In this document: piece after piece, positions 1 through 64,000 of the stretch
Layout: every line of letters starts with the position of its first letter
How positions within the stretch are numbered: the first letter of the stretch is position 1
Made by a program: the position numbers and the translations under genes
Notes under the pieces: generated by a model
Database searches by the model: none
What the model saw: the letters and a program-made list of their open reading frames with translations, nothing else
Told to the model about the DNA's origin: nothing
Origin: a phage
Direction: 5' to 3' (one strand)
Sequence record: PZ445435.1
Length of the DNA stretch: 64,000 nucleotides

Positions 1-686
1 GTAGTGTTCCAACGAAAAGAATCATTTTTAATCATCTTTTCAATTACATCTTTTATAGCTTTTTCACTATCAAAACTTTCTTTATTTTCCTTTGGTGAAA
101 AAAGCTTATTCTCTACATCGTTCCATGTATAAACTCGCTGAGCGGTTTTTGGAATACTGTCACGTTCCCCTCGAGCCATCCAATACACAGGAACACGTAA
201 TATTTCACTCGCATGATCGCAGTGGTGAGCGAGATCGTCAATATAACAAATTACGTTATATTTCTCTTTTGCCTTTTTGAACAACTCTTCTTTTGAAGAA
301 TCATGACCACACATCATTACTTCTGAGAAGGCACCAGGAAAAAGAGCATTCAAATTAAATTGACGATTCAGCAGAGCGTCAATAGAATCACCCAATGCTG
401 TAACAGCTACAAAATTATAATCTTCTTTTAATTTGTTAATTACACACAGGGCATCTTTATATGGAGACAAGTAACGAATAAAATCTGAACGATTGTATTT
501 TTCAATTAGCTTAACGCCAAGCTCTTCATCGCAATTAAATAGTTTACCTGGAGAGATAAATTTCTCATCTTGGATCATTTTTAAAATATGTTCCAACGGA
601 AGATTATATTTCTGAGCAAAATAAGGAAGACCTGATTGCCAGCTTAAACATACTCCATCAATATCAGTTAAAATAGTAGGCTTCAT
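1..686 (-). CDS. HAD-like hydrolase, N-terminal ~228 codons (C-terminus lies beyond window start)
   Basis: Minus-strand ORF starting ATG 686..684 (ATGA overlap with upstream ORF stop); N-terminal MKPTILTDIDGV resembles HAD motif I (DxDG); position matches T4 30.2 region. Confidence 0.5.
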   Translation of the reverse strand, partial: MKPTILTDIDGVCLSWQSGLPYFAQKYNLPLEHILKMIQDEKFISPGKLFNCDEELGVKLIEKYNRSDFIRYLSPYKDALCVINKLKEDYNFVAVTALGDSIDALLNRQFNLNALFPGAFSEVMMCGHDSSKEELFKKAKEKYNVICYIDDLAHHCDHASEILRVPVYWMARGERDSIPKTAQRVYTWNDVENKLFSPKENKESFDSEKAIKDVIEKMIKNDSFRWNT

Positions 687-1147
687 AGAGAGTCTCTTAA
701 TAGGTTTAACACATCAATAAATTCAGCTTCGGTTAGTATTGTATCATCTTTTGTTAGACCACTAGCCATGCTGTGCTTCAAAACTTTTCCTTTCGAGGCT
801 TGTAATGCATCACGAAAGCCCTTGTTTTGGATCGCTGCTTCAAAATATGCATTTGTGTATAATTCTTTCCACGCCGGGGAGTATCTTGAAAACGGAACTC
901 CAAGCCAGAAGAGGGTCCCACGGTCCTGAGCTCTAGCATAAGACCTTCCAGCTTGTTGGGCGGCAAGCCCGGATAACCCAAATATACGACGTTGTTGTTC
1001 AACATTTTTCACCTTACACCCTTGGAGGAATCCTTCAAGACCTCCAAATTGAATACCATCCATAACGAAAGGCCATTGGACGAAATTACTTAATGCACAT
1101 GATGGCCACCTAAAATTACTTCTAATCTCTAACTCAGACATTTTCAA
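683..1147 (-). CDS. NADAR/YbiA-like domain protein (154 aa)
   Basis: ORF track; motif LSNFxxWPFxxDGxxF...E.FLQ..K resembles YbiA/NADAR signature; T4 30.3 position. Confidence 0.55.
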   Translation of the reverse strand: MKMSELEIRSNFRWPSCALSNFVQWPFVMDGIQFGGLEGFLQGCKVKNVEQQRRIFGLSGLAAQQAGRSYARAQDRGTLFWLGVPFSRYSPAWKELYTNAYFEAAIQNKGFRDALQASKGKVLKHSMASGLTKDDTILTEAEFIDVLNLLRDSL

Positions 1148-1340
1148 TGCTTATAATTTCAACATCAGCCCAATGACCATAGCAAGGAAGACGAAATTCA
1201 ACTGGCCAGTTAGGGTCCTTTTCTAATATAATAGACTTAACTTGTGGTTCTTCGTGTTCATCAGTATACGGATTTTTATCTGTTACTTTATATGTGACCT
1301 TAATGTACTGAATTCCAAAAATCTTATTAATTATATTCAT
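1134..1340 (-). CDS. hypothetical protein (68 aa)
   Basis: ORF track, tightly packed minus-strand early gene array. Confidence 0.4.
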   Translation of the reverse strand: MNIINKIFGIQYIKVTYKVTDKNPYTDEHEEPQVKSIILEKDPNWPVEFRLPCYGHWADVEIISIENV

Positions 1341-1534
1341 ACTAATTCCTTTAATCCGTAGATAGGAGATAATTCATCACCCATACGAAGGTCTTCATTT
1401 CCATCTACCCAGGAAACAATATAAGCCTCTTTTATTTGAATACCACTCCATTTAAATGGAGGTAGAACCTTAGAAATTAATCCAGGTATACCAACTCCCT
1501 TTAATTCAACGGTTTGACCTAAAAAGAATTTCAT
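1337..1534 (-). CDS. hypothetical protein (65 aa)
   Basis: ORF track, overlaps neighbours by 4 nt. Confidence 0.4.
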   Translation of the reverse strand: MKFFLGQTVELKGVGIPGLISKVLPPFKWSGIQIKEAYIVSWVDGNEDLRMGDELSPIYGLKELV

Positions 1535-1821
1535 TAAAACCTCATCTGAAAACCATGCGATTTAACGTTACCACCGCCAATATCAGAAATATTAATTTCA
1601 CGCGCAATTGAAGGGTCAATGTCAATTTCACGATTGAGTTTAGTGATAGCTAAAGTATCGCGCCCATTTACAGTACGGAACTCTAAAGGACAAACCACAT
1701 CAACGTAGTTTTTAATCGATTCGCTAGTAGGTTGCAAATGAGCAGGAAGGTCTTTGGGCGCCTTTGAGAAAACCACTTCACAGAAATTTTTGCGGGTATC
1801 AAAATAAGTAGTCATAAACAT
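1534..1821 (-). CDS. hypothetical protein (95 aa)
   Basis: ORF track; GAGGA Shine-Dalgarno upstream. Confidence 0.45.
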   Translation of the reverse strand: MFMTTYFDTRKNFCEVVFSKAPKDLPAHLQPTSESIKNYVDVVCPLEFRTVNGRDTLAITKLNREIDIDPSIAREINISDIGGGNVKSHGFQMRF

Positions 1822-1837
1822 AATATTTTCCTCAGTA

Positions 1838-1853
1838 AGGGGCCGAAGCCCCT
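1838..1853 (-). promoter_or_regulatory. intercistronic stem-loop (AGGGGC-UUCG-GCCCCU) immediately upstream of RBS
   Basis: Perfect 6-bp stem with UUCG tetraloop between two ORFs, no U-tract. Confidence 0.4.
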
Positions 1854-1863
1854 CATTTTATTT

Positions 1864-2241
1864 TTAAATATCAAATTCGTTAAGAACTACATCAAAGATT
1901 GCTTCCAAGTGCTCAGGTTTAGCTTTGTTACTCAGAATATGACGAATCCAAGTTTTAACTAAGAGTTTACGATTAGCACCATTCCAGCAAGGATGAGTCC
2001 CTAAATCGCGTTGGCGGAAATCATCATCCAGAGCGATTTTGAAGTTGGAACCTTTCATCGTGATTGAAACCGTGATACCGTTTTCAAATCGCATATAAAC
2101 GTAGTTAGGAGTCATATACTGTTCAATTTCGCATACTGATCCGTTTTGATGTTTCCAGAGGCAAATAGTATCAATAGAACCTGCAATACCATTAGAAACA
2201 TATTTACGTTCAAAGTTGATGTAGTTCATTTTATTCTCCAA
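1864..2241 (-). CDS. hypothetical protein (125 aa)
   Basis: ORF track. Confidence 0.45.
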   Translation of the reverse strand: MENKMNYINFERKYVSNGIAGSIDTICLWKHQNGSVCEIEQYMTPNYVYMRFENGITVSITMKGSNFKIALDDDFRQRDLGTHPCWNGANRKLLVKTWIRHILSNKAKPEHLEAIFDVVLNEFDI

Positions 2242-2264
2242 GATGTTTAATTGCGGTACAGGTA

Positions 2265-2294
2265 TATAATATCATATCCTGTACCAAAGTAAAC
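2265..2294 (-). promoter_or_regulatory. T4-type early promoter (-35 GTTTAC, -10 TATTAT region)
   Basis: GTTTAC at 2294..2289, -10 about 17-18 nt downstream; palindrome gtacagg...cctgtac encloses the -10. Confidence 0.5.
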
Positions 2295-2296
2295 AA

Positions 2297-2629
2297 TTAT
2301 TTTACTACTTTCCAATGCTGCATGTCAAGTTTACCAACTTTTTTCATCTTCTCAATTAAGCGTTCTGCACGTTGGCGAGCTGTAACATAATGCCATTCGC
2401 CTAATTCATTTTGTTCAATTTTTCCAACGATTACTGTATTCAATTCATAAATCCAACCAGTAAAGAAATTATGAACTTGAATTGTAAAGGTGAAATCTGT
2501 TCCCATACCTTCTGTTGTTTCTACTTCAATAATATCACCTTCAACTGCCATTAAGAACCACATAGTTTCATTATATTTACCATTGAAGCATTTAGTTTTA
2601 ACTGCAGCGTTCAGATTAATCGTTTTCAT
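2297..2629 (-). CDS. hypothetical protein (110 aa)
   Basis: ORF track. Confidence 0.45.
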   Translation of the reverse strand: MKTINLNAAVKTKCFNGKYNETMWFLMAVEGDIIEVETTEGMGTDFTFTIQVHNFFTGWIYELNTVIVGKIEQNELGEWHYVTARQRAERLIEKMKKVGKLDMQHWKVVK

Positions 2630-2656
2630 TTTATTCTCCTTTGTTTGTGTAAGATA

Positions 2657-2686
2657 ATACTATCACAAAGGAACCATACTGTAAAC
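2657..2686 (-). promoter_or_regulatory. T4-type early promoter (-35 GTTTACA, -10 TAGTAT)
   Basis: Motif match and spacing; just downstream of a terminator hairpin. Confidence 0.5.
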
Positions 2687-2708
2687 AACTTTGTGCAATC
2701 TTTGGAAA

Positions 2709-2734
2709 ATAAAAAAGGACTCCCGAAGGAGTCC
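2709..2734 (-). terminator. rho-independent terminator (GGACTCC-UUCG-GGAGUCC + U6)
   Basis: Perfect 7-bp stem, UUCG loop, T-run on minus strand. Confidence 0.7.
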
Positions 2735-2739
2735 TCAAC

Positions 2740-2916
2740 TTATGCTTTCTGCTTACCAAAACGAGAAGCATCATCTCGAAGAACCGCACGTGCTCGGCGC
2801 ATGATCTTCTCAACAGTTTGATTGATACGAGAGTTCGACCCACGCTTGTAGCCAGCGCGTTTAGAATCACCAACTTTCTTTTCAACTGCTTTCTTTGCTT
2901 TAGCTTGTTTTGCCAT
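2740..2916 (-). CDS. small basic protein (58 aa, start at internal ATG)
   Basis: ORF track; Lys/Arg-rich; T4 30.9 position. Confidence 0.4.
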   Translation of the reverse strand: MAKQAKAKKAVEKKVGDSKRAGYKRGSNSRINQTVEKIMRRARAVLRDDASRFGKQKA

Positions 2917-3204
2917 TATAAATTCTCTTTTAAATGAAAATGCAGGACTTATTGGCATTGCCTGCGAAAGCCCTCAAAGGGGTACTTAGGTTTTGAATAT
3001 TTACCGACAGGATAACCATAAACCCGTCATCATACCACCAAGACTTACACAGATAACACTTTTCTGACGCATGATAGTAACATTCAAGAGGTACACCATA
3101 AAACTGCCGGGGTCTTAAAACTATAATGATTCGCAAATCATTAATCAGACAGTTCGACGGCTCCTCGTTTTAACTTCACACTAAGGCAGTGACTCTCCAA
3201 TAAA

Positions 3205-3453
3205 TTACTTCAGTGTTACCACAAAGTGACGAACTGCTTTTCGTGCGGCAGAAGCCAGAGGCTTAGCATATTTAAGTTCATCTTTTTCCTGAAGCTCAGC
3301 AGCTAATGCAGTTTGAGCAGGATTCAGATGTTTGAAATAACGCAGGATTTCAAGAGCTTCGGCTTCAACATCAATAGATGCGCCATAGTTTTCGTGACCA
3401 TTATTCCATGCGTTTCGTTGCAGTTCAAGAGCGTGTTGTAATTGTTTAATCAT
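3205..3453 (-). CDS. rIII: lysis inhibition accessory protein rIII
   Basis: 82-aa product matches recalled T4 RIII sequence and position next to gene 31. Confidence 0.85.
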   Translation of the reverse strand: MIKQLQHALELQRNAWNNGHENYGASIDVEAEALEILRYFKHLNPAQTALAAELQEKDELKYAKPLASAARKAVRHFVVTLK

Positions 3454-3571
3454 TTAAAAATTCTCGTTAGAGATTAAAACTCGGTAGTCACGTTCTTCTG
3501 AATTTCATCTTCTTTCGACAGATCTCTCAGTTGTAGACTACCACATAGAATTGAAACTCAATTCATATTAT

Positions 3572-3579: not shown

Positions 3580-3915
3580 TCACTTATAAAGACACGGAAT
3601 AGCTTTATAGTGACAGGTAACAAATTTTTGTTTAATTTCTTTTGGCTGCTTAAGACCTAGAGCTACAAAAGGATGCGGAACGTTTCGAATTTGACCAACT
3701 GGAAGAGAAGTCAAATCACCAACTTCGCAGAAACCTTCAGGAACATCAGGACCAACAGAGTGAACTACACACAGTTCAGGAACTTCACCTTGGACACGTT
3801 TACCAATAATAAGTCCTGATTCTGTAACTTCTTCATCACCGGCTTGCGCAGGTTCAGAAACTAAAATAACATATTCACCGACAGCACGAATTGGTAGCTG
3901 TTGTACTTCAGACAT
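3580..3915 (-). CDS. 31: co-chaperonin gp31 (GroES analogue for capsid folding)
   Basis: 111-aa product matches recalled T4 gp31. Confidence 0.9.
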
Positions 3916-6394: not shown

Positions 6395-7616
<1,222 letters not shown>

Positions 7617-7620
<4 letters not shown>

Positions 7621-9051: not shown

Positions 9052-10639
<1,588 letters not shown>

Positions 10640-10647
10640 AATAAAAT

Positions 10648-10661
10648 GGGCCTTGCGGCCC
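10648..10661 (-). promoter_or_regulatory. GNRA-loop hairpin (GGGCC-GCAA-GGCCC) 8 nt upstream of denA ATG
   Basis: Perfect 5-bp GC stem between nrdB stop and denA start. Confidence 0.4.
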
Positions 10662-10666
10662 ACTCC

Positions 10667-11845
10667 TTAAAAATATTTTTTAAAACTCATCATAACTTTA
10701 TCATCAACATCATTATCAATCTGTGCAACAAGATAAGATGACAGTTCTACTTCTTGTGGCGCGGATTGAACATTATCAGAATTAAGATATTCACGAATCC
10801 AAGGATATGGGTGTTTAACCGGAGCATCGGTAATTGGGCATGGAAGACCACACTGTTTCATACGAGATACAGTTAAGTAATCAATAAAGCTCCACATGTT
10901 ATTTGTATTTAATCCAGGAACATCGCCATCTTTAAATAAATGAACTGCCCAATCTTTTTCTTGGCGGTTAACTTCCATGAAAATATCAACTGCTTCTTGT
11001 TCACACTCTTGAGCAATTTTAACCCATTCATCGCCATCAGTGCCAAGTTGAAGTTGACGAATAATATATTGAGTGCCTTTAAGGTGAAGCTGTTCATCAC
11101 GTGCAATGAACTTCATAATCTTTGCATTGCCTTCCATAATTTCCATGTTCTTATGGAAGTTAAAGGTACATGCGAAAGATACATAAAAACGAATAGCTTC
11201 CAATGCGTTGATTACATGCAAACAGAGGTAAAGAGATTTCATTAGCTCACGCTTCCAATATGTCTCATGCTCAATAGCATCTTCAATAACATCTTCGTCT
11301 GCATTAATTTCTTTTTGGTATTCGATATCAGCTTTAGCGTTTTCCCAATAACGAGTTTTAGTCAGAACATCATCATAATAACGTCCAATGGATTCAGCAC
11401 GTTTCATAATAGCTTCATCTAATACAATCTCATCAAATACCTTTGACGGATCAGTATAAAGATTTCGCATGATATGTGTATATGAACGAGAGTGAATAGT
11501 TTCACTAAAAGTCCACGTAGCAACCCATGTATCAAGGCTTGGGTCTGAAATTAATGACATAAGTACAGCAGACGGCGCACGACCCTGAATGCTATCCAAA
11601 AGTGATTGATACTTCAGGTTATTAGTAAAAATATTTTGCTGATACTGAGGAAGCTTATTAAACTGTGCAGCATCCATCATTAAGTTTACTTCTTCAGGAC
11701 GCCAAAAAAATGATAAAGATTTCTCAATAAGTTCTTCAAATACTCTATGTCGTTGAATATCATATCGAGCTAAACCCAATCCAGAACCAAAAAACATCGG
11801 CTCAGTCAAAATATTAACAGGGGATGTATTAAAAACTGTACTCAT
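10667..11845 (-). CDS. nrdB: ribonucleotide reductase small subunit (intronless)
   Basis: 392 aa, di-iron/tyrosyl radical R2 family, contiguous ORF. Confidence 0.9.
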   Translation of the reverse strand: MSTVFNTSPVNILTEPMFFGSGLGLARYDIQRHRVFEELIEKSLSFFWRPEEVNLMMDAAQFNKLPQYQQNIFTNNLKYQSLLDSIQGRAPSAVLMSLISDPSLDTWVATWTFSETIHSRSYTHIMRNLYTDPSKVFDEIVLDEAIMKRAESIGRYYDDVLTKTRYWENAKADIEYQKEINADEDVIEDAIEHETYWKRELMKSLYLCLHVINALEAIRFYVSFACTFNFHKNMEIMEGNAKIMKFIARDEQLHLKGTQYIIRQLQLGTDGDEWVKIAQECEQEAVDIFMEVNRQEKDWAVHLFKDGDVPGLNTNNMWSFIDYLTVSRMKQCGLPCPITDAPVKHPYPWIREYLNSDNVQSAPQEVELSSYLVAQIDNDVDDKVMMSFKKYF

Positions 11846-51196: not shown

Positions 51197-51197
51197 A

Positions 51198-51944: not shown

Positions 51945-51979
51945 ATTTTTCTCACATCTTACGGACGATTGACTACTAT

Positions 51980-52009
51980 ACTATAACATTTTTACTTCAG
52001 ATTGTAAAC
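51980..52009 (-). promoter_or_regulatory. T4-type early promoter (GTTTACA, TATAGT)
   Basis: Motif and spacing. Confidence 0.5.
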
Positions 52010-52066
52010 AACTTTATGCAAAAATGCTTTAAAACTTTCGTGGTATAATGAATCTAAGTCCTTCCA

Positions 52067-53289: not shown

Positions 53290-53315
53290 GATAGCCTCCG
53301 TATACTTCAGAAGCT

Positions 53316-53345
53316 ATCATATCATTGTTAGGAAGGAAAGTAAAC
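53316..53345 (-). promoter_or_regulatory. candidate T4-type early promoter
   Basis: GTTTAC with weaker -10. Confidence 0.4.
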
Positions 53346-53356
53346 AACTTTTTGAA

Positions 53357-53539
53357 TTATTTTGCCCAGGGAGCCCAGGGCGGAGGGTCAAGATGGTATG
53401 AAGCTAGTTCTTCTAGAAGAGCATCTGGGGCTTCAATTCCATAATTCTGTAATACTATACGGTACTCTTTCTTATAATCACTAGAATCATTCTGGATATT
53501 CGTAGAATGATTATCTTCTAACATCTCAAATAAATCCAT
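53357..53539 (-). CDS. hypothetical protein (60 aa)
   Basis: ORF track. Confidence 0.35.
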   Translation of the reverse strand: MDLFEMLEDNHSTNIQNDSSDYKKEYRIVLQNYGIEAPDALLEELASYHLDPPPWAPWAK

Positions 53540-53547
53540 ATTAATTC

Positions 53548-54018
53548 CTAGCGATAAAAACCAAAATGACGATTAGCTTCAGCAATCTTTCTTTCTTCTT
53601 CGGACATTCTCCATCGTAGTCCAACATCAAAATGAGCCCAGACCATCCTAACAAATGCATTTATATCTTTAATATCTTCAATAATGAATGTTTTACTTTT
53701 AGAAGGTTGACTCGCTAATTTAACTTTATCGTCTTCAAACATGTCAAAAAGACCATATTCATGAGCTCTTTTATAGCCTTTAATAGTTAAAGCTTCAGAA
53801 GAAGAAAATGGTGAATCTGTATTCTGCAAAATATCTTCAGTATGCTTTATAATTAGAATAATATTTTCTGGATATTTTCTTTCTTTTATATCTTTAATTA
53901 AAATATCCGGATTTTCTGCTAAAGGAATAATTAATGAGCATTTTTTATCAAGTGTATTTACTGATTTACCTTCTTTAGACATAAATTCTATTGAATAATG
54001 TTTTGCTACTTCAATCAT
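53548..54018 (-). CDS. hypothetical protein (156 aa)
   Basis: ORF track. Confidence 0.45.
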
Positions 54019-54171
54019 GGGATTTCCTTTTGCCTACTAATGGACCATCGGGAATTTTGTTTTCCTGGATATATTTCTCATTTTCTTCCATCATTTTACT
54101 GCCAATTTTAAGAAGCAAATCTAAGGCTTCATTTGCTTTAGCTTTAGCCTCTTCTAACGTCATGTTCTTGT

Positions 54172-54375
54172 TCATGATTTATCCCCATAGATGTCTCTCA
54201 TCAATTTAAGTGCTGAGCGTTCTAATTTCTTTTCTTTCTCAGCACTAATCATTGATTTCATCCATTCTTCCGATTCGTTCTGCATTTCTTTATTTGCCTG
54301 TTCAACCCAACCATCGTCAATATACATTGAGTTTGGTCTATTGAACCATTCAAGCATTTTCTTCAGAACTTTCAT
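54172..54375 (-). CDS. hypothetical protein (67 aa)
   Basis: ORF track. Confidence 0.4.
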
Positions 54376-54847
54376 TTGTTTTACCTAAAACAATAGTAGG
54401 AGCATCGTCAAATTCATGAATTTTTAGCAATTTTGGATTTAAATTATTCCATACATAATAAATAAAGTATGATAAAGCATCTTCACTCGCAATTATAAAT
54501 TTATTTCCTTCATTTATTTTCCAGTCATATACTGAATCGTACGAATAAAAAGATAAAGGATTACCATTATATTGTTCTGCGCTAACATTAATGTATTCGG
54601 ATTTAGTAAATGCTTCAATTGCTCTAAACGGACTATTTGGCACAGTTTCAATAATTCCGATCTTTTTAAGTTTTATTTCAACATCTTCTGGAACTGGCAT
54701 TGAAACGAAATTTTCTACGAGATACATAGGGTTACAATAACCCTTATCAATCACTACGGCTACAGTAATTGGAACATCTTTAGCAAACGACATGCTATTA
54801 CTGCTAATATACATTTCAAACAAAATTGCTTCCATAATTTTCCTCAA
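54350..54847 (-). CDS. hypothetical protein (165 aa)
   Basis: ORF track. Confidence 0.45.
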
Positions 54848-55185
54848 TCACAAGATGTAGATGAACAGCTAGAATCACAAGAACTTCCGCATGAATCACC
54901 TGCCCATACATGAACAGGGACATTTGTATCATATGAATCAGAACTAGACTGTGTATTCTGTGCATTAGATGATGTAGTAGGTACTGACCAGCGCCAAGGA
55001 TTTTTATAATATTCTTGGGCTTCTTCATAAGTCATAGTAACTGCTTCTACTGTTCCATCTCCCATATAAACATACTCAACTACAGTTAAAGGAAGGTAGT
55101 CATTTGAAATAGGAACTACACCTTCTCCCGGAGTTGTAGAGAAAAAATCTGTAAAGAAATTTTTAAACCAATTAAAGATAAACAT
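54844..55185 (-). CDS. hypothetical protein with Cys/Ser-rich C-terminal tail (113 aa)
   Basis: C-terminus [15 protein letters not shown]. Confidence 0.45.
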
Positions 55186-55397
55186 TACAAAAAGCCTCTT
55201 TGAAATTCGACTCTTTGAAATCCACCCCAGTCAGTATATCGCATTTCAGCATTGAACTCGACTGAACCATCTGCATGCATCATGAATGAATGCGTGACGA
55301 CATCACAATCCCAGCTTTTCATACCCCATTTATCAGAGATAGCTTTATCAAGAACCTTCTGAAGGTCTTCATTTGGTTTAATCCAACGATTTAACAT
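55185..55397 (-). CDS. hypothetical protein (70 aa)
   Basis: ORF track. Confidence 0.4.
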   Translation of the reverse strand: MLNRWIKPNEDLQKVLDKAISDKWGMKSWDCDVVTHSFMMHADGSVEFNAEMRYTDWGGFQRVEFQRGFL

Positions 55398-55423
55398 AGT
55401 GTTCTCCTCTATAAGATATTTTT

Positions 55424-55453
55424 ATTATACCACACTCATTTTGACATGTAAAC
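55424..55453 (-). promoter_or_regulatory. T4-type early promoter (GTTTACA, 18 nt, TATAAT)
   Basis: Consensus elements. Confidence 0.6.
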
Positions 55454-55461
55454 CATAAAAT

Positions 55462-55488
55462 GAAAAAAGGAATCCCGAAGGATTCCTT
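55462..55488 (-). terminator. rho-independent terminator downstream of soc
   Basis: GGAATCC-UUCG-GGAUUCC perfect stem followed by U6. Confidence 0.75.
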
Positions 55489-55495
55489 AAATTAT

Positions 55496-55753
55496 TTAAC
55501 CACCTACACCTGGTGTAGGTGTAACAGTCCAAAGACCTTCATTAGCAGTGATCCATTCAGTACGTTGATTTTCTTCATATACTGTAGAATATGCTGCTTT
55601 TTCAGAAGGGAATGTCTGATAATGAGCACCAGAAATTTTGTGAACATCAGAATAAAGAGGGAAAGCTACAGAAATTTCTTTACCCTGAATTGTACCACCA
55701 TCAACTGCTTGGTCAAATGTTTTAATATTAACATAACCGCGAGTACTAGCCAT
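55496..55753 (-). CDS. soc: small outer capsid protein Soc
   Basis: Matches recalled T4 Soc. Confidence 0.85.
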   Translation of the reverse strand: MASTRGYVNIKTFDQAVDGGTIQGKEISVAFPLYSDVHKISGAHYQTFPSEKAAYSTVYEENQRTEWITANEGLWTVTPTPGVGG

Positions 55754-55769
55754 GTAATTCTCCTTTTAT

Positions 55770-55979
55770 TTAAATTACATGATTATTTATAATAAATTCT
55801 CGCGGAACGTTAAAATACCCGATTTTAGTTAATATAACAACATCGCCGTTAATAATTACCGGAGAATAATCTTCTGGAGCATTAAATTTCCAATGGGCTC
55901 TAATATTATATCCATCAGAACCAAATGCTCGAGTAGCCGGTCTCCCGGCTTTTTGCCACGCGTAGAAATCAAATTTCAT
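55770..55979 (-). CDS. hypothetical protein (69 aa)
   Basis: ORF track. Confidence 0.4.
   Translation of the reverse strand: MKFDFYAWQKAGRPATRAFGSDGYNIRAHWKFNAPEDYSPVIINGDVVILTKIGYFNVPREFIINNHVI
55784..55791 (-). promoter_or_regulatory. late promoter TATAAATA for soc
   Basis: Exact consensus about 30 nt upstream of soc ATG. Confidence 0.6.
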
Positions 55980-56170
55980 TTTGAATGCTCTATAATTAAT
56001 TTTAAAGCTTCTTCACTGACAAAAATTTCGTCAGGACCTTCTATAACTTCAACCATACGAAGTTGATTAGTTAAGAGCTCACATACGAGCTCCTTGTTAT
56101 AATCTTTAAATAGCTGGTCAATACGTTTCTTATGGGCTTTCTTAAGCTGACGCTTATTTAAACGAGCCAT
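55976..56170 (-). CDS. hypothetical protein (64 aa)
   Basis: ORF track. Confidence 0.4.
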   Translation of the reverse strand: MARLNKRQLKKAHKKRIDQLFKDYNKELVCELLTNQLRMVEVIEGPDEIFVSEEALKLIIEHSK

Positions 56171-56688
56171 TAATAACCTCGGTCTTGACGAGCGAAGTTT
56201 TCAGCATTTTTCAGATAATAAAGTTTAAATATTTCTTCAGCTGACATTCCAAGAGCAATGAATTTATTCATGAAAAAGTGAAATTGATCAATCAGTTCAA
56301 ATTTAATTTCAAGTTGATCTTCAGGAGATAAGTCTTGAATTTTCTTGGATTGCATTTCAGAATAACGTTTCTTCCAAGGTTTCCATACGGCAGAAGCTTC
56401 TTTTTCACCATTACTCATACCACCAAGAGAAGTATATAGCTCGCGAGTTTCATCTGCGATATAATCGTCTTGGTTTCGCAACCAAGCAAGAACTTCTCCT
56501 GCAGTTTCAAGTGAATCGGGATGACGATTTGTTTCTGGTTTATCATTAGCCAAACGAATCTGTAAATGCCGCTGCATATCAAGCATAACCTGCAATGGGT
56601 CAATACTGTGCATAATATACTCAGCATATGCACGATTTGCTTTATCAACACCTTCGATCAAATGAGCACATTCATTAAAGTGAGCCAT
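56170..56688 (-). CDS. 56: dCTPase/dUTPase gp56 (MazG-like pyrophosphatase)
   Basis: 172 aa from internal ATG with AAGGA SD; track N-terminal extension is hydrophobic. Confidence 0.75.
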   Translation of the reverse strand: MAHFNECAHLIEGVDKANRAYAEYIMHSIDPLQVMLDMQRHLQIRLANDKPETNRHPDSLETAGEVLAWLRNQDDYIADETRELYTSLGGMSNGEKEASAVWKPWKKRYSEMQSKKIQDLSPEDQLEIKFELIDQFHFFMNKFIALGMSAEEIFKLYYLKNAENFARQDRGY

Positions 56689-56759
56689 TATTTTTCCTTT
56701 CAATTCATGGGTTAGTAGATTAATTATACAATAAATATATAAAGCAATAAGGAGGACAT

Positions 56760-56960
56760 ATGGTACAAAAATTAATGGCACTTGTTAATGCCATAAAAGG
56801 TAATAAGAAACGTATAGCTTTTACTATTTCTGCTATGGTAGGAATTTTACTCTGGAACTTTATTTTATCACCTGTTGCAATTGCACATGGTATTAATATT
56901 CCAGTAGTTACTCTTGATACATTCGTAGATTTAGCATTTGCTTTAGTTGGGTTAATTTAA
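56760..56960 (+). CDS. small membrane protein (66 aa) on plus strand in the 56-61 gap
   Basis: Strong AAGGAGG SD 7 nt upstream of ATG; two hydrophobic segments. Confidence 0.35.
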   Translation: MVQKLMALVNAIKGNKKRIAFTISAMVGILLWNFILSPVAIAHGINIPVVTLDTFVDLAFALVGLI

Positions 56961-57985
56961 ATCTTAGCATATTTAGATAGCCGCATTTTAGCCATCAACC
57001 CCTGGGCAATATTATTTTTCATATATTCCATAATTTGTTCAGGGGTTGCACCTTCCTTTCTAATCATATCATTAACATCTTTTGATTTCCAGGGAGATTT
57101 ATCCCAAAACATAACCCTTTCTCCTGCATCAACTAATTTAGTCATTCGTTTGATAGTGTCAGGGTGACGAGGTTCATTATCTAAAACCCACACTCGTCTA
57201 TCTTTAAATGGAACAACTTCTAGGTCTAATTGACCACCCGTAATAGCTATACCATTTTCAATAAAAAGTGAATCTATAGGTCCTTCTAGAACATATACAT
57301 CACCATCTTTAACTCGTTCGACTCCATATATTTTTGTTGCCTCAGGATAAGCTTTGATGGTGATATATTTTTGAGGAGCATCTTTCTTTAATGCACGTCC
57401 TTGAAAAGACTCAGCTTTTCCATTAGCATTATAAATTGGAATAACAAGACGAGGCTCAGAAATTTCCTTTTTGTATGTTCCCGGTGCTATGCTATTAACT
57501 AATTTAGGCCATTCGGTTGTAAACCAAAGATATTTCCATTTATCCTTTGGAATACAACGAGCTTTTACATATTTTATAATTGGATGGTCTTCCGCCAGTT
57601 TATCTAATCTAACGCATGACGGAAGAGATTTAATTATTTTCTTCTCAGGTTGTTTAGGAAGTTCTTTAGGTTTTTCTACTGGACGACTTTTACCTTTTTC
57701 TTTTCTTATTTCAAAGATATACTCACGATATAAATCAGGTTCAAACTCCTTTAAATATATTCCGATTGGTGCATGATAGTTACAGTTATAACAATGAATA
57801 TTTCCTTCATTATTATCACCATAATACCATCCACGAGCTTTATTCTGGTCGGTTTTTGAATCTCCACAAACAGGGCATCTAAACCGTAATTTAAAAGTTG
57901 AACTATTATTTACTTGTGTGAATTTAGGTAAATGAGCTAATGCACGGTATGCAAACTCATTATCAATCCAAGGTATTGATGACAT
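56957..57985 (-). CDS. 61: DNA primase gp61
   Basis: 342 aa; N-terminal CxxC...CxxC zinc ribbon plus TOPRIM. Confidence 0.9.
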   Translation of the reverse strand: MSSIPWIDNEFAYRALAHLPKFTQVNNSSTFKLRFRCPVCGDSKTDQNKARGWYYGDNNEGNIHCYNCNYHAPIGIYLKEFEPDLYREYIFEIRKEKGKSRPVEKPKELPKQPEKKIIKSLPSCVRLDKLAEDHPIIKYVKARCIPKDKWKYLWFTTEWPKLVNSIAPGTYKKEISEPRLVIPIYNANGKAESFQGRALKKDAPQKYITIKAYPEATKIYGVERVKDGDVYVLEGPIDSLFIENGIAITGGQLDLEVVPFKDRRVWVLDNEPRHPDTIKRMTKLVDAGERVMFWDKSPWKSKDVNDMIRKEGATPEQIMEYMKNNIAQGLMAKMRLSKYAKI

Positions 57986-57987
57986 TT

Positions 57988-58152
57988 TTACTCTTCTTTT
58001 TCTTTAGATTCCTCTTTTTTCTTTTTAGGAATCTGTTCAGGACCTTTATTTACTACAGCGCCTGACGTTGTTCCAGTAGAGATATTTTCAGGATTACCAC
58101 CTGAATCTCCAGCGACCATATCTTCTTTGATAAATTCTTTATATGTTTTCAT
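57988..58152 (-). CDS. small hydrophilic Lys/Glu-rich ORF (54 aa, not in track)
   Basis: Own translation. Confidence 0.3.
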   Translation of the reverse strand: MKTYKEFIKEDMVAGDSGGNPENISTGTTSGAVVNKGPEQIPKKKKEESKEKEE

Positions 58153-58153
58153 A

Positions 58154-58510
58154 TTAACCTCTATTCATAAAAGCATTAAAAATTTGGTCATCAATAGATG
58201 GTGCAGTAATATTTTCTGCATCATTTAGCAAATCATTAATTTCATCAGATAGCATAACACATGTACCTTTATTTCCTGTAATTGTTACTGCACAATTACG
58301 AACGTTTTCTTTATCAAATTTTAGGTTAATATTTTCGTAGTGAAAATCCTTTAATGCCGAATATATCTTTAAAATAAAATTGTCTTTTACTACAATAAAC
58401 CCAACCTCACTATTAAAACGTGGTTCATGGAAACTGTAATAAACCTTTTCATCTATAAAATCGTATGAAATTTTTTCCATTTTTAAATATGAAAATTCAG
58501 AACTATACAT
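58154..58510 (-). CDS. hypothetical protein (118 aa), single-domain paralogue of next ORF
   Basis: Shares FIVVKDN-type core and C-terminal SIDDQIFNAFMNRG with 215-aa neighbour. Confidence 0.5.
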   Translation of the reverse strand: MYSSEFSYLKMEKISYDFIDEKVYYSFHEPRFNSEVGFIVVKDNFILKIYSALKDFHYENINLKFDKENVRNCAVTITGNKGTCVMLSDEINDLLNDAENITAPSIDDQIFNAFMNRG

Positions 58511-58511
58511 A

Positions 58512-59159
58512 TTAACCTTTATTCATAAAAGCATTAAAAATTTGATCGTCAATAGAAACTTTTACTTTAGGCTGTTCTTCAAACGGTAATTCATATCCAC
58601 ATATTACAATTTTGTGATCGATACCAAAATACACAGAAGCAATATGATTAATATTATTTTCAGTGAAATCTAAATCAACATCAATATCTTTTTGACTAAC
58701 GCTCAAAGGATAATTAATACGAATAATTCGATTATCTTTAACAAAGATTCCACCGACATACTCTGTGTTGCGTTTAAAGTTTACACGTTTCCTAAATGAA
58801 AAATATTCAGGTTCTTTATGAGCCCGACTCATAGGACACAATGAGTAGCTAGAATAAGAGATGTCAAATCCTACACCTTCAATATGAATATGAGCCAACG
58901 TGTCATGATTAAACCAATTATAATCATATGCCAAATCCATTATATTGTAATATGTGAAAGGCACCGGATTAACATCATATGTTGTACCTTTAAAATCTGC
59001 CCAGGCAACGATTTCGTTATCTTTAACAATTACAAAAATTGTGCCAATAAGATATCCACGGTTATTTTCATCAGGTGTTATATTATAACATTGTGCATCA
59101 GGAAATTTACCGTATTTAAACGGTGGATTTTTGTGCATATAATAAATCATATTATTCAC
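58512..59159 (-). CDS. hypothetical protein (215 aa), two-domain paralogue
   Basis: Internal duplication; identical C-terminal 14-aa module. Confidence 0.5.
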   Translation of the reverse strand: MNNMIYYMHKNPPFKYGKFPDAQCYNITPDENNRGYLIGTIFVIVKDNEIVAWADFKGTTYDVNPVPFTYYNIMDLAYDYNWFNHDTLAHIHIEGVGFDISYSSYSLCPMSRAHKEPEYFSFRKRVNFKRNTEYVGGIFVKDNRIIRINYPLSVSQKDIDVDLDFTENNINHIASVYFGIDHKIVICGYELPFEEQPKVKVSIDDQIFNAFMNKG

Positions 59160-59445
59160 CTGTGATTTCGGTTACGATATTTTTGTTATTAAAGTTTTTA
59201 TCGCAATACAGAACATAATTATACTGCATTACACCACCAGACTTAAGTTGTTTTTGCACTTCAGCTTTCATTTCAGGACGATCGCGCTCAACGATATTCA
59301 TAATATCTGCTTCAATTTGGGTTTCAACTTCAGTCTGATCCGCAGTCATAGACCATTCGCACAAATCTTTATCATAGCCTGCCATAGCAGGCTGAGCAGC
59401 ACAAGAAGCCAAAGTAAAAATTGTAGCAAAAATAAATTTTTTCAT
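59152..59445 (-). CDS. sp: probable Spackle (periplasmic superinfection-exclusion protein)
   Basis: 97 aa with cleavable signal peptide; position between 61 and 41. Confidence 0.55.
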   Translation of the reverse strand: MKKFIFATIFTLASCAAQPAMAGYDKDLCEWSMTADQTEVETQIEADIMNIVERDRPEMKAEVQKQLKSGGVMQYNYVLYCDKNFNNKNIVTEITGE

Positions 59446-59505
59446 GATAATCTCCTCAGTAGTTTATGTTTATATAGTATCTCAATTTCCAACAAAAGTA
59501 AACAG

Positions 59506-59805
59506 CTATTTTAAAACTTCTGCATAATCACATGTTACAAACTGTTTCTCTAGCTTGACGATTTTACGAAAGTATCTTTTGCATTGGCGAATCTGTCGCT
59601 TCGTGGGGCGAACAGCAAACTTAATAAATTCCACTCGACCAAATGGAGGACTTTCTTCTGCTGGAATATCTAACACCAATTCCCACGTATCTGCAATAAG
59701 TGCTTTGAATTGAGTATTTTTCCTGACGTTATACGGAGTAGGTTTAAATAAAACAATATGCATATTATCCTCGGCAATCCACTTCGCACACTTTCTTGTC
59801 ATCAA
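59506..59805 (-). CDS. hypothetical protein (99 aa)
   Basis: ORF track. Confidence 0.45.
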   Translation of the reverse strand: MMTRKCAKWIAEDNMHIVLFKPTPYNVRKNTQFKALIADTWELVLDIPAEESPPFGRVEFIKFAVRPTKRQIRQCKRYFRKIVKLEKQFVTCDYAEVLK

Positions 59806-59947
59806 TGAAAGCTTTAACTAATGCTTTATTAACTTCAGCATATTGAGTAGTAGCCCATTGAACGTCATCTTTCATCATTGTGATTTCTTTAGTAAACATG
59901 CTTTCATTCTTAAACCACCCCATAAAAACTACCTTTACCAATTCCAT
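59765..59947 (-). CDS. hypothetical protein (60 aa)
   Basis: ORF track. Confidence 0.4.
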   Translation of the reverse strand: MELVKVVFMGWFKNESMFTKEITMMKDDVQWATTQYAEVNKALVKAFIDDKKVCEVDCRG

Positions 59948-59976
59948 AACAATCTCCTCATTTAACCAACAAGACT

Positions 59977-60006
59977 ACTATACCATAGTCTTGTCAGCTT
60001 GTAAAC
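59977..60006 (-). promoter_or_regulatory. T4-type early promoter (GTTTACA, TATAGT within inverted repeat AAGACTA...TAGTCTT)
   Basis: Motif and spacing; overlaps gene 41 stop. Confidence 0.55.
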
Positions 60007-61433
60007 TAAAATTTTAATTCATTTGCCAAAGCATCTAACTGAGCTCGAGTGGATTCATTTCTTTGATAGCGATTCTGCTCAGCCTGAATCTGTTGTGAAC
60101 CTGCTACTTCACTCACTTCAGTTGGAGTAGAATCTTGTTCAATTTCTACCCATTTTTGATTTCCTTTTTGAACACCCATCAAAAACTTATTCCACTTATT
60201 CTTATCACCATATCGTGATTTGATTTGCTTAATGAGTTGTTGTTCAGCAGCTGCTAGCTCCTCGGTTTCAATGACCGCAAGCATAAAATCAGCTGTTGCT
60301 GGAAGACCAGCAGATTCTGCAATATCGCTCATGTTAACATCGGAAGAGTCCCAAGCTTGTTTACCAACCTGTGCTGCAGTCCAAAGAACAGTTTCGGTTT
60401 CAACAGCCAGAGCACGCAATTCCTCTGCGATAGCTTTAACAGTTGTGTAACTATTTTCTGAATAAACTCTAATGCGGCAAGATTTACAAATACCTAGATA
60501 GTCGACAATAATGATTGTTGGAACAAAATTCTTCTTGAGCTTTAATTCATTTAAAAGTGATCGAAATGTATTAGCGTCTGCTCCACCAGTAGGATATTGC
60601 TTAACGATTAAACGACCAAGGGTAGATTTCTCACGCCATTTTTCCATTTTTCCTTTATACTCAGCGTAAGAAATATGCCCATCATCAATGTCATCAAGAG
60701 AAACATCGAGCATGTTAGCATCAATACGTTTAGCACAGACTTCTTCTGCCATTTCCATGGAGATATAAAGAACGTTATGACCAAGCTGCAAATAATCTGC
60801 TGCCAATGAACACAGACCTAATGACTTACCAACGTTAACGCCAGCCATTAAAACGTTCAGTGTTCCAGTCTCAGCTCCACCTTTCGTAATTTTGTTTAGA
60901 ATTCTGAGTTTAAATGGAACCTTACGAGCTTTATTCATATAAGATAGCCAACGCGCTTCATAGTCATCCATCCAATCATGACCAACGTAGCTATCAAATG
61001 AAATTGATAATGCTTGGCGCATGATGTCAGGAATAGCACCTACATCTGGCATTTTCTTATTTCGTTTTTCCGGAGGAAGCTCAGCATTAGTTTGAATTTC
61101 GATTATTTTAGACGTAGCATTAAACATCGCCCTTTGCTGAACATATTTTTCTGTTTCTTTTACTAACCAGCTGTGGTCTTCTGGAGAATCAGCCAGTTTT
61201 GAAATAAGTGTTTTTACACCAGAATATTCTGTTTCAGTAAATGAACTATTTTCTAATGCAACATTTAACGCATTAATAGATGGAACGCTATGATACTCAT
61301 TAACATGAGATTTAATTAATTTGAATGTATTTTTAGCTGGACCACTTTCAAAATATTCTGAATCCATATATGGCCAAACTTTTGAAAAATAAGCTTGATC
61401 AAATATGAGATGAGAAAGAATAATTTCTACCAC
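60006..61433 (-). CDS. 41: replicative DNA helicase gp41 (DnaB family)
   Basis: 475 aa; GVNVGKS Walker A; GTG start codon. Confidence 0.95.
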   Translation of the reverse strand: MVEIILSHLIFDQAYFSKVWPYMDSEYFESGPAKNTFKLIKSHVNEYHSVPSINALNVALENSSFTETEYSGVKTLISKLADSPEDHSWLVKETEKYVQQRAMFNATSKIIEIQTNAELPPEKRNKKMPDVGAIPDIMRQALSISFDSYVGHDWMDDYEARWLSYMNKARKVPFKLRILNKITKGGAETGTLNVLMAGVNVGKSLGLCSLAADYLQLGHNVLYISMEMAEEVCAKRIDANMLDVSLDDIDDGHISYAEYKGKMEKWREKSTLGRLIVKQYPTGGADANTFRSLLNELKLKKNFVPTIIIVDYLGICKSCRIRVYSENSYTTVKAIAEELRALAVETETVLWTAAQVGKQAWDSSDVNMSDIAESAGLPATADFMLAVIETEELAAAEQQLIKQIKSRYGDKNKWNKFLMGVQKGNQKWVEIEQDSTPTEVSEVAGSQQIQAEQNRYQRNESTRAQLDALANELKF

Positions 61434-61442
61434 ACTTACTCC

Positions 61443-61799
61443 TTAAAAGAATTTAAATTTTTTCTTTGACCTTTTATTAAATGCATCTTGCAGTTGCATT
61501 GTAATACATTTTTCTACATGAGGAGCTAACTCAGCTTTTCTTTCTTGGTCAAGAACAGCAAAGTCCATTACGACTTTTCCATCAACCCAATCTAATTTTG
61601 TCACATACACAATGTGTGTAGAACCATCTTCTAGTTTAATGACAATCTCCTGGATAACATTTTCCATGGCAGATTTAATTATCTTAAGAGATTCATTAAA
61701 AAGACGTTCTTTTCTTTCTTCTTCCCCCTCCGAAGAGGGGGATTCATCGATAATTTCTAAATCTAAATCATCTTTACTCATTAAATTCTTCCATATCAC
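61443..61799 (-). CDS. 40: probable gp40 (head vertex assembly), by synteny
   Basis: 118 aa between 41 and uvsX. Confidence 0.5.
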   Translation of the reverse strand: MIWKNLMSKDDLDLEIIDESPSSEGEEERKERLFNESLKIIKSAMENVIQEIVIKLEDGSTHIVYVTKLDWVDGKVVMDFAVLDQERKAELAPHVEKCITMQLQDAFNKRSKKKFKFF

Positions 61800-62955
61800 T
61801 TAACTGCTCGAGGTCAGTTTCTAAATCAGCAGCTGATTTACTTTTACTTTCTGGAGATTTAAATTTTTCAACCTTTGAGTTAATCAATTCATCAACTTCA
61901 GCTTCAACAATTTCATTACTATCAATAGCACCTAACTGATAAGCACGTTTAATAGCATCTCGGAATGGTTGATGCTTAAATAAAGGACCCCAGAATGTAG
62001 TGCAGTTGGTATCTTTTGCACGCCAAGATTTTTCTTCGCGAATCATCTCGCCGGTTTCTTCATCAAGAAATTCACGAGCATACCAGCCATTTTTAGGTTT
62101 TACCACGAATCCTAATTCTAAAGCCATATCTAACAATCCAGAATAAGGATCGATACCACCGTCAAATTTAACATCAATAAAGAATTTACTTTTTTCTTTA
62201 ACGGTACGAGATTTTTCTACATTTAGAACAAATTGATACCCCTGAAGATCAGAACCATCTTTAATCTGACGCTTACCGATAATGAATACAGTATCAGCCG
62301 AATACATTACGCCTGTACCACCTGTCATCACGGTTTTACTAAACATTTCAATTGTTTCAATTGTATGGTTAACCGCAACACATGGAATATTTTTAATGCT
62401 AAAGTAAGGAGTAACAATACGGAATAATGACTTCAGTGATTTAGCACGAGTCATATCTGCCACAGATTTTTCATTCAAGGCATCTTCAGTTTCTTTCTTA
62501 GAAGCCATATTACCGATTGAGTCGATGAATACAATAACTTTTTCACCACGCTCAATATCTTCAAGCTGATTCACCATATCAATTTTCAGCTGTTCAACTG
62601 ACTGGATTGGCGTATGAATTACTCGTTCCGGGTCAACTCCCATGGATCGCAAATAAGCTGGAGTAATACCAAATTCGCTATCATAGAATAGACAAACCGC
62701 GTCAGGATATTTGTTCAAATACGCCGCAACCATAGTCAAAGACATATTTGATTTAAAGTGTTTAGAAGGCCCTGCGAAAATAGTTAAACCAGACTGCATA
62801 CCACCATCAATCGCACCAGAAATAGCAATATTAAGCATTGGGATTTTTGTACGGATTACATCCTTTTCATTAAAGAATTTAGATGTAGTCAGTTCAGCAG
62901 TCATTTTAGAAGTGGAAGCTTTAATCAAACGGGATTTTAAATCTGCAATAGACAT
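61774..62955 (-). CDS. uvsX: recombinase UvsX (RecA/Rad51 family)
   Basis: 393 aa; Walker A FAGPSKHFKS; matches recalled T4 UvsX. Confidence 0.95.
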   Translation of the reverse strand: MSIADLKSRLIKASTSKMTAELTTSKFFNEKDVIRTKIPMLNIAISGAIDGGMQSGLTIFAGPSKHFKSNMSLTMVAAYLNKYPDAVCLFYDSEFGITPAYLRSMGVDPERVIHTPIQSVEQLKIDMVNQLEDIERGEKVIVFIDSIGNMASKKETEDALNEKSVADMTRAKSLKSLFRIVTPYFSIKNIPCVAVNHTIETIEMFSKTVMTGGTGVMYSADTVFIIGKRQIKDGSDLQGYQFVLNVEKSRTVKEKSKFFIDVKFDGGIDPYSGLLDMALELGFVVKPKNGWYAREFLDEETGEMIREEKSWRAKDTNCTTFWGPLFKHQPFRDAIKRAYQLGAIDSNEIVEAEVDELINSKVEKFKSPESKSKSAADLETDLEQLSDMEEFNE

Positions 62956-63032
62956 TCATTTTTTCCATAGGCATCATTATATTTTCCTCACTGGTTAAAG
63001 ATAGAGTAATTATAACACAATAAATTTAGGCA

Positions 63033-63875
63033 TTAATCAACTGCTATTGGATGAATAGCATTAAACTTATGAAATGCTTCTGATTTTTCTTTGCGCGAAA
63101 CACACATGCGAAGAACCTTTAATGGCTCGTCTTCTTCACCCAACGATTTTCGTTTTTCAATATTAGAAGTTTTCCAACGAGCTTGCTCTGGAAACTCTCT
63201 ATTGATTTGCTCAAGCGCTCTATTATGTTTAGAATTACTACGAATTGAACTGCACCCGCCAGGAGCTTGTGCTTTTCCAGATACAACCAGATATTTGAAC
63301 AAGGCCAAATGCGGATAACCTTGATTAATTAAATTGAGAAATGCATACATATCTTCACATAAATCAATTTTTCCATACCCAATTTGTTCTGTCGTAAGTT
63401 TTCCGAGGTCATACCATGTATTCGTGAATCCATATGAATTTTCACGATAATTACCCCAAGATGAAGTAATTTTAAAAATAGGTAGACGAGCATGGCCATG
63501 ATAATACCCGCAATCCATAGCATCTTCAACGTATTGAATCAATTCGTAGAATTGTTCACGGGTTAATTGATTGACTTTATCTACACAGCGACGATCATCT
63601 CTTTTTCGCATTGAGCTCATACGAATCGTAGTATCATCGTCAATCATCCAGATTCGTTGACCTGCATACATATCAGTAATTGCTTTACGAGTACCGGCAA
63701 TTCCGTTTACATCATCAGGAATAGTTACAATTTTAGCTCTAGACCCATAGGCGTCATAATAAGCTTTTTCTTCATGTTCACGTACTACAATATGAGGTTC
63801 ATAATCAGTCGGAAACATATCAAGGGCAGAAACTGCCCCTACGCGTTGATAGCTCGGAATTACGAATTGAATCAT
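63033..63875 (-). CDS. GT-A fold (DxD) glycosyltransferase at the T4 beta-gt locus (about 280 aa)
   Basis: IWMIDDDTTI DxD motif; lies between uvsX and gene 42; does not resemble recalled T4 Bgt. Confidence 0.55.
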   Translation of the reverse strand: MIQFVIPSYQRVGAVSALDMFPTDYEPHIVVREHEEKAYYDAYGSRAKIVTIPDDVNGIAGTRKAITDMYAGQRIWMIDDDTTIRMSSMRKRDDRRCVDKVNQLTREQFYELIQYVEDAMDCGYYHGHARLPIFKITSSWGNYRENSYGFTNTWYDLGKLTTEQIGYGKIDLCEDMYAFLNLINQGYPHLALFKYLVVSGKAQAPGGCSSIRSNSKHNRALEQINREFPEQARWKTSNIEKRKSLGEEDEPLKVLRMCVSRKEKSEAFHKFNAIHPIAVD

Positions 63876-64000
63876 TTCCACTCACCGTTATAATCTTTTT
63901 TCACAATATGAGTTTCGCCAGTATTCCACCAATGATCAACCAAGTAAAAATGACGAGAATATACATGAAGACTTCCAACATTCCATATAATAGAACCTGC
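63872..64000 (-). CDS. 42: dCMP hydroxymethylase gp42, C-terminal 42 codons (partial)
   Basis: Own translation ...GSIIWNVGSLHVYSRHFYLVDHWWNTGETHIVKKDYNGEWK matches recalled T4 gp42 C-terminus. Confidence 0.65.
   Translation of the reverse strand, partial: AGSIIWNVGSLHVYSRHFYLVDHWWNTGETHIVKKDYNGEWK

Follow-up and report, generated by a model that had tools for sequence, protein, structure and literature searches.

The 64,000-nucleotide (nt) stretch of phage DNA analyzed here (sequence record PZ445435.1, positions 1 to 64,000; hereafter the window) belongs, in our assessment with high confidence, to the genome of a natural Tequatrovirus, of which it makes up approximately 38%. This T-even coliphage of the hydroxymethylcytosine (hmC) type is distinct from T4, T2, and T6, and the window spans its early and tail fiber region from gene 30.2 to gene 42. 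An initial annotation had recognized a T-even segment with the gene order of T4, which differed from T4 at four loci (gene 39, the td and nrdB introns, the beta-gt locus, and the dam position between genes 56 and 61), and had suggested a T2/T6-like or RB-type relative rather than T4. This assignment is supported by the states found in T2 and T6 and by the annotations of RB-type matches ('gp60plus39 ... RB51'), and it can be refined: the window is neither T2 nor T6 and combines T2-like, T6-like, and T4-like states. T2 and T6 each have three of the four states, in different combinations. It is an ordinary, already known kind of T-even genome segment, which departs from T4 at well-known variable spots.

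In blastn alignments with the T4 reference genome (NC_000866), the window formed collinear blocks of mostly 94–97% nt identity, which extended from 127.6 kb of T4 through the coordinate origin to 25.6 kb. The T4 origin corresponds to window position 40625/40626 at the rIIB/rIIA junction, where the blocks pass from the 3' to the 5' end of T4; rIIB and rIIA (39687–42814, minus strand) share 99.0% and 98.3% amino acid (aa) identity with their T4 counterparts. The gene content and order attributed to the window were confirmed by 118 T4 proteins, which were placed by tblastn in T4 order from gene 30.2 (3–686) to the C-terminus of gene 42 (63878–64000). Both terminal genes lie on the minus strand and are cut by the window ends. 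Gene 30.2, the left end of the T4-collinear segment, retains residues 1–228 of T4 gp30.2 at 98.2% identity. The 3' end of gene 42 (dCMP hydroxymethylase) was located at 63872–64000 by transfer from the identical record of the BASEL phage Bas45 (MZ501098), and residues 205–245 of T4 gp42 (the C-terminal 41 aa) aligned there at 87.8% in tblastn.

Near-identity to T4 had been noted for several proteins. It held (97.6–100%) for gp31, the GroES-like head-assembly co-chaperone (3580–3915, minus strand; 100%), RnlA, RNA ligase 1 (9052–10176, minus strand; 98.1% across 374 aa), AsiA (32375–32647, minus strand; 100%), MotA (34467–35102, minus strand; 97.6%), gp35 (98.7% in tblastn), and gp38, and did not hold for Soc, which reached only 87.3%. 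Many proteins, among them gp31, AsiA, rIII, gp33, DsbA, Dmd, and DexA, were 98–100% identical to T4. The genes of hmC-DNA metabolism found in the window were the partial gene 42, gene 56, denA (99.3% identical to T4), denB (98.4%), alc (97.6%), and cd (99.5%). This gene set, together with T4-collinear order and high nt identity to genus members over the 64 kb tested of approximately 167 kb, places the window in Tequatrovirus. No tRNA genes were found in the window by ARAGORN; none was expected, as the T4 tRNA cluster lies outside this stretch.

Gene 39, encoding the large subunit of topoisomerase II, is undivided in the window. As the initial annotation had stated, it forms one open reading frame (ORF) of 605 aa ('60plus39'; 43083–44900, minus strand, with the ATG at 44900), within which residues 1–473 of T4 gp39 and residues 27–160 of T4 gp60 aligned end to end in tblastn. 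At the junction, 65 nt (43418–43483) stand where T4 has 1118 nt that carry 60.1, mobA, and the 5' part of gene 60, including the 50-nt bypass; T4 60.1 had no tblastn match in the window. The single chain contains the Pfam domains HATPase_c, DNA_gyraseB, Toprim, and TOPRIM_C and is identical to the T2 and T6 proteins at 602 and 603 of its 605 residues, respectively. Thus, the division into genes 39 and 60 that marks the T4 species, along with its mobA cassette and 50-nt bypass, is lacking. The insertion of mobA has been reported to have divided the T4 topoisomerase gene 'as compared to related phage' (PMC2988022), and the mobA-bypass cassette has been described as a mobile element (bioRxiv 10.1101/2022.08.31.505936). 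Judging from homology, the large subunit would be made as one 605-aa chain, so that no translational bypass would be needed.

The td and nrdB genes are both single, uninterrupted ORFs, in agreement with the reported lack of introns. In nrdB (392 aa; 10667–11845, minus strand), the T4 alignment skips 598–600 nt at the empty intron site (11169/11172), and in td, which encodes thymidylate synthase (286 aa; 15278–16138, minus strand), it skips approximately 1017 nt at 15586/15591. The NrdB protein is identical to that of T2 at 371 of 392 positions. T4 I-TevI and I-TevIII had no tblastn match in the window, and the group I introns in td and nrdB that are characteristic of the T4 species are absent. 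This conclusion relies on the integrity of the ORFs and on the alignment gaps, not on Rfam. A scan of the window at the Rfam gathering threshold detected no group I intron, and the positive control, T4 122000–168903 with its td and nrdB introns, was also blank; the scan was therefore discarded as an intron test. The inserted ORFs presumably break the Rfam model in T4, and a blank Rfam scan should not be taken to mean that a phage lacks group I introns. By homology, the td and nrdB mRNAs would need no splicing. The td allele (15001–16141) is unusually divergent, with 80–82% nt identity to T4, T2, T6, and Bas45 alike. Its protein is 85% identical to T4 and 87% to T2, and the flanking genes are 95–98% identical to T4, T2, and T6. 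The sequence of the td junction is identical in phage UFV-AREG1.

At the beta-gt locus, the different glycosyltransferase that had been reported proved to be a 280-aa beta-glucosyl-HMC-alpha-glucosyltransferase (beta-alpha-gt, TAGT; 63033–63875, minus strand), which replaces segA and beta-gt of T4. The protein was assigned to phrog_842 (E 1e-89) and to the Pfam family TAGT (PF20691, E 2e-9), and is identical to its homologs at 277 of 280 positions in T2 and 275 of 279 in T6; the gene is 100% nt identical to the Bas45 gene annotated ba-gt. T4 beta-gt had no tblastn match anywhere in the window, and T4 segA had no homolog at this locus and only a weak, remote match elsewhere in the window. The presence of TAGT PF20691 and the absence of a T4-type beta-gt correspond to T2/T6-type glucosylation as defined previously (PMC13216743); most phage genomes carry TAGT, while the alpha plus beta pair of T4 is rare (PMC13216743). 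If function follows homology, the hmC DNA of this phage would first receive an alpha-glucosyl residue, which beta-alpha-gt would then extend, yielding the gentiobiosyl-hmC of T2 and T6 in place of the alpha/beta mono-glucosyl pattern of T4.

The spacer between genes 56 and 61 (56689–56956) contains no dam-like gene, as had been stated. Relative to T4, 900 nt (16825–17725) are missing at window position 56728/56749, and T4 Dam had no tblastn match anywhere in the window. With neither protein matched, the T4-species trait of beta-gt and dam at their T4 positions is lacking. The same dam-less layout occurs in T6 and Bas45, whereas dam is present in T2. For T6, the absence of dam is based on the genome record, as no statement on it was found in the literature searched. 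The homology-based expectation is that no phage Dam would be made from the usual 56–61 locus. Gene 56, encoding dCTPase (56170–56688, minus strand), is a T2/T6-type allele with 69.8% aa identity to T4, and 169 and 168 of its 172 residues are identical to T2 and T6, respectively. Gene 61 (primase; 56957–57985, minus strand) is 99.4% identical to T4 at the aa level.

All four differences from T4 are thus real, and no T4 match above 99% runs across these loci: identity is 94–97%, and each of the four interrupts the alignment. Nevertheless, four is an undercount, because segG, segF, and segA are also gone, approximately nine small ORFs are additional, and gene 37 is a different allele. At the gene 32/59 junction (19748–19846), the T4 alignment skips 624 nt (25919–26543 of the T4 segment 122000–168903), and T4 SegG had no tblastn match in the window. 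SegF was likewise without a tblastn match in the window. Its place is taken by two small ORFs of 69 and 64 aa (55770–56170, minus strand), the first of which matched Pfam DUF7422 (E 4e-46); this two-ORF arrangement is common to T2, T6, and Bas45. The adjacent soc gene (55496–55753, minus strand) encodes a T2-type protein of 85 aa, which is 87.3% identical to T4 Soc (80 aa) and shares 81 of 85 residues with T2.

The frequency of the non-T4 states among phage records was estimated with short queries centered on each junction, whose match would fall into two separate parts around an insert of T4 size. For gene 39, 985 of 1045 matching records had an uninterrupted junction; the corresponding counts were 1165 of 1368 for nrdB, 757 of 1190 for td, and 293 of 946 for the dam-less 56–61 spacer, where the denominators include more distant T4-like genera and the counts are hence rough. 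For the 56–61 junction, approximately 200 further records matched in two places, some of which were confirmed to have dam in between (e.g., vB_EcoM_112). Each of the non-T4 states is common or in the majority among phage records.

The tail fiber module combines a T4-type gp38 chaperone with a non-T4 allele of gp37. Gene 37 (27843–31118, plus strand) encodes a distal subunit of the long tail fiber of 1091 aa, which contains a Pfam Collar domain, is 62.7% aa identical to T4 gp37, and has a T4-like extreme C-terminus. Gene 38 (31146–31697, plus strand) encodes an assembly chaperone of 183 aa with 98.9% aa identity to T4 gp38, whereas only 32 identical residues could be aligned with T2 gp38 (262 aa). 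The module of genes 36 to 38 is 99.9% nt identical to vB-Eco-KMB22, Ozark, and the BASEL phage FriedrichZschokke, and the exact gp34 protein occurs in vB-Eco-KMB22. Homology suggests that receptor binding would follow the T4-type architecture, with a gp37 tip folded by the gp38 chaperone, and not the gp38-adhesin type of T2 and T6.

We searched three parts of the window by megablast against 50,697 phage records (release of August 2025), which yielded matches to hundreds of Tequatrovirus genomes. Positions 1–25000 were covered completely by FL08 (96.5% identity) and to 99% by slur02/slur04 (97.0%), positions 25001–50000 completely by 303Ecol101PP (98.0%), and positions 50001–64000 completely by Bas45 PaulHMueller (100.0%). 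Every base of the window was covered by known T-even phages with at least 96% identity. Tracts without any mismatch to Bas45 extend over 9323–11122 and 45261–64000 (18.7 kb), and 1–3552 contains a single mismatch. Elsewhere, the divergence from Bas45 is approximately 4%, except for the region from 11 to 31 kb (nrdA, td, 32, 59, rnh, 34, 37), which is only 75–82% identical (divergence of 20–25%). There it is Bas45 that diverges, while the window matches T4, T2, and T6 at 95–98%. We conclude that the window is the usual recombinational mosaic of T-even phages, as judged from these alignments. Its closest relatives are the recent sewage isolates Bas45, 303Ecol101PP, slur02/04, and vB-Eco-KMB22.

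Several points weigh against the interpretation of the window as part of a natural Tequatrovirus with the properties given above. None of the 50,697 records matches the entire window at 99% identity or more, and the assembly index holds no record of the exact gp37 protein. A dam gene may be located elsewhere in the genome, beyond the window. Gentiobiosyl-hmC is predicted from one of the two required enzymes, as alpha-gt lies, by the T4 map, outside the stretch covered by the window. Finally, the identity to Bas45 switches sharply between tracts of 100.0% and others of 96% or 75–80%. These switches, like the lack of a full-length match of at least 99% in the phage collection, would also be expected if the window were a chimeric assembly of reads from Bas45-like and other Tequatrovirus phages in a mixed lysate or metagenome. 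However, a block-wise pattern is normal among natural T-even phages and is seen when T2, T6, T4, and Bas45 are compared with each other and with the window. Furthermore, no ORF that crosses a switch point is broken, and the tracts that do not match Bas45 are 97–99.9% identical to several independent isolates. Because of the intact ORFs and the same pattern in natural genomes, we rate a chimeric assembly as improbable.

A comparison with individual phages shows how the natural mosaic is composed. Bas45 shares with the window the fused gene 39, the dam-less 56–61 spacer, beta-alpha-gt, the two small ORFs at the segF position, and a partial paralog of AdfA, but its nrdB contains an intron with a homing endonuclease, it has several additional putative genes for such enzymes, and its gp38 is a T2-type adhesin of 260 aa. 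The best overall matches for the parts unlike Bas45 were vB-Eco-KMB22 (OR539217), 303Ecol101PP (OR062944), and slur02/slur04, with 97.0% identity over positions 1–24950; in vB-Eco-KMB22, genes 32 and 59 are separated by a 210-aa ORF, which the window lacks.

That the window could be classical T2 (AP018813) or T6 (AP018814), or a strain variant of either, is very unlikely, although both share with it the fused gene 39, beta-alpha-gt, the gene 56 type, and the two ORFs in place of segF. T2 further resembles the window in its intron-less td and nrdB, its 85-aa Soc, and two ORFs, one of 115 aa between td and frd and an AdfA-like one of 118 aa, but it carries dam and one further ORF between genes 56 and 61 and has no endonuclease gene between nrdA and nrdB. 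T6, which also lacks dam between 56 and 61 and shares the 213-aa HNH endonuclease and the 109-aa arn.4, differs by an unrelated distal part of gp37, the lack of a partial AdfA paralog, and an intron in td that carries an I-TevI-like ORF. Both phages possess an adhesin-type gp38 of 262–265 aa, in contrast to the T4-type gp38 of 183 aa in the window. Hence, the window shows neither dam between 56 and 61 together with an adhesin-type gp38, as characteristic of T2, nor the td intron with the I-TevI-like ORF and adhesin-type gp38 of T6. Identity to the two phages is approximately 95–98% with gaps in coverage, and T6 has no match over positions 28001–31000. Identity profiles calculated per kilobase agree with a window that mixes states of T2, T6, and T4 and is none of the three.

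Least of all can the window be T4, or a laboratory derivative of T4 deleted for introns, seg/mob genes, dam, and beta-gt, a reading that we regard as practically untenable: the gene order is identical throughout, gp38 is of the T4 type, and many early proteins are 98–100% identical, but the DNA diverges by 3–6% across the whole window beyond the insertions and deletions, the alleles of gene 56 (70% aa identity), gp37 (63%), frd.2 (45%), and mrh.2 (59%) differ, and approximately nine ORFs lacking in T4 and another glucosyltransferase at the beta-gt locus are present. Among the phages compared, T4 alone has the split genes 39/60 with the bypass and mobA, as well as segG, segF, segA, and beta-gt; dam and the td and nrdB introns are further T4 features that the window lacks. 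Based on the alignments with T4, T2, and T6 and on the protein comparisons, identity with T4, identity with T2 or T6, and an engineered deletion derivative were all rejected.

The differences from T4 are best explained by two well-documented processes. One is the presence or absence of selfish elements, namely the group I introns of td and nrdB together with I-TevI and I-TevIII, segA, segF, segG, and the mobA/gene 60 bypass cassette. The other is homologous recombination among co-circulating T-even phages, which shuffles alleles and small accessory ORFs. The genes that adjoin segF and segA in T4, gene 56 and uvsX, differ sharply from T4 and not from T2/T6 (gene 56, 70% versus 98% aa identity). 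In uvsX (61774–62955), the 3' kb is 84% nt identical to T4 versus 98% to T2/T6. Genes beside the T4 endonuclease genes are their reported targets, and co-conversion has been described for SegF and SegA (Table 1, PMC2988022). The divergence of gene 56 and uvsX fits co-conversion in the T4 lineage near the sites cut by homing endonucleases. The edge of the Bas45-identical tract at approximately 11122 is located about 50 nt from the site of intron insertion in nrdB, which in Bas45 is occupied by an intron with a homing endonuclease gene. Together with the alternation of identical and diverged tracts, this position suggests recent recombination, possibly with homing-associated co-conversion. We tentatively consider, with somewhat less than even confidence, that the isolate is new to the August 2025 collection, that its 18.7-kb Bas45 tract beside diverged tracts reflects very recent recombination among co-circulating sewage T-even phages, and that homing-associated co-conversion shaped the boundaries.

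A free-standing homing endonuclease gene is present between nrdA and nrdB (11842–12483, minus strand). Its 213-aa product has the Pfam domains HNH and NUMOD3, belongs to phrog_655 (E 1e-65), and is identical to the T6 protein at 207 of 213 positions (97%). Over this stretch, T4 has two annotated ORFs, mobE, which matches the N-terminal part at 56%, and nrdB.1, which matches the C-terminal 83 aa at 98.8%. The enzyme may correspond either to MobE or to the Hef of Sandegren et al. 2005.

The approximately nine small ORFs without a T4 counterpart are scattered over the window. Single ORFs are found at 7300–7620 (phrog_2364), 38499–38762 (phrog_2390), and 46437–46718 (no Pfam match). Between td and frd, a 115-aa ORF (16184–16531, minus strand; phrog_1928, E 1e-35) has equivalents of the same size in T2, T6, and vB-Eco-KMB22. 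Two ORFs of 81 aa (17132–17377, minus strand; phrog_3183) and 110 aa (17389–17721, minus strand; phrog_3566/Pfam DUF7247, E 8e-44) are located between frd and frd.1, and the corresponding DNA (17132–17721) was not covered by any T4 blastn block. The 123-aa ORF between 39.1 and 39.2 (45236–45607, minus strand; phrog_622, E 1.5e-29) is an insertion relative to T4 and also occurs in Bas45 and T6. AdfA/61.2, the anti-DarT factor (58512–59150, minus strand; PF23813 AdfA, E 1e-136), is adjoined by a partial paralog of 118 aa (58154–58510, minus strand; phrog_4122). This diverged copy matches the C-terminal half of AdfA (E 1e-7), shares 36% identity with the neighboring protein (E 4e-10), and is present in T2 and Bas45 and absent from T4 and T6. 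Except for the ORF at 46437–46718, which was scanned against Pfam alone, the T4-absent ORFs listed here belong to existing PHROG families.

The only ORF in the 56–61 spacer is a conserved one of 66 aa (56760–56960, plus strand; phrog_2024, E 1e-31), which overlaps the edge of gene 61. Annotations of this ORF exist for T2, T6, and Bas45; the corresponding T4 DNA (17725–17935) is 98.5% conserved, and no gene is annotated there. Furthermore, arn.4 (34127–34456, minus strand) is a 109-aa ORF, with the same length at this position in T6, while T4 annotates 68 aa (98.5% match); compared with the related phages, T4 arn.4 thus appears to be truncated on one side. Low identity to T4 was also observed for frd.2 (18032–18418; 45% aa), mrh.2 (55185–55397; 59%), and mrh (54350–54847) and motB.1 (47369–47806; 78% each). 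Amid surroundings that are 95–99% identical, these four genes look like local allele replacements.

Beyond the correct labelling of this sequence, the importance of these findings is small. For the biology of the phage, the gentiobiosyl-hmC expected in its DNA changes how sensitive it is predicted to be to defenses based on type IV restriction and on glycosylases, and receptor specificity would be set by a gp37 tip of T4 architecture that belongs to a non-T4 allele. With regard to the genus, our results indicate that T4 is an atypical member, unusually loaded with introns and homing endonuclease genes, and that what appeared to be non-T4 hallmarks represent the T-even default.

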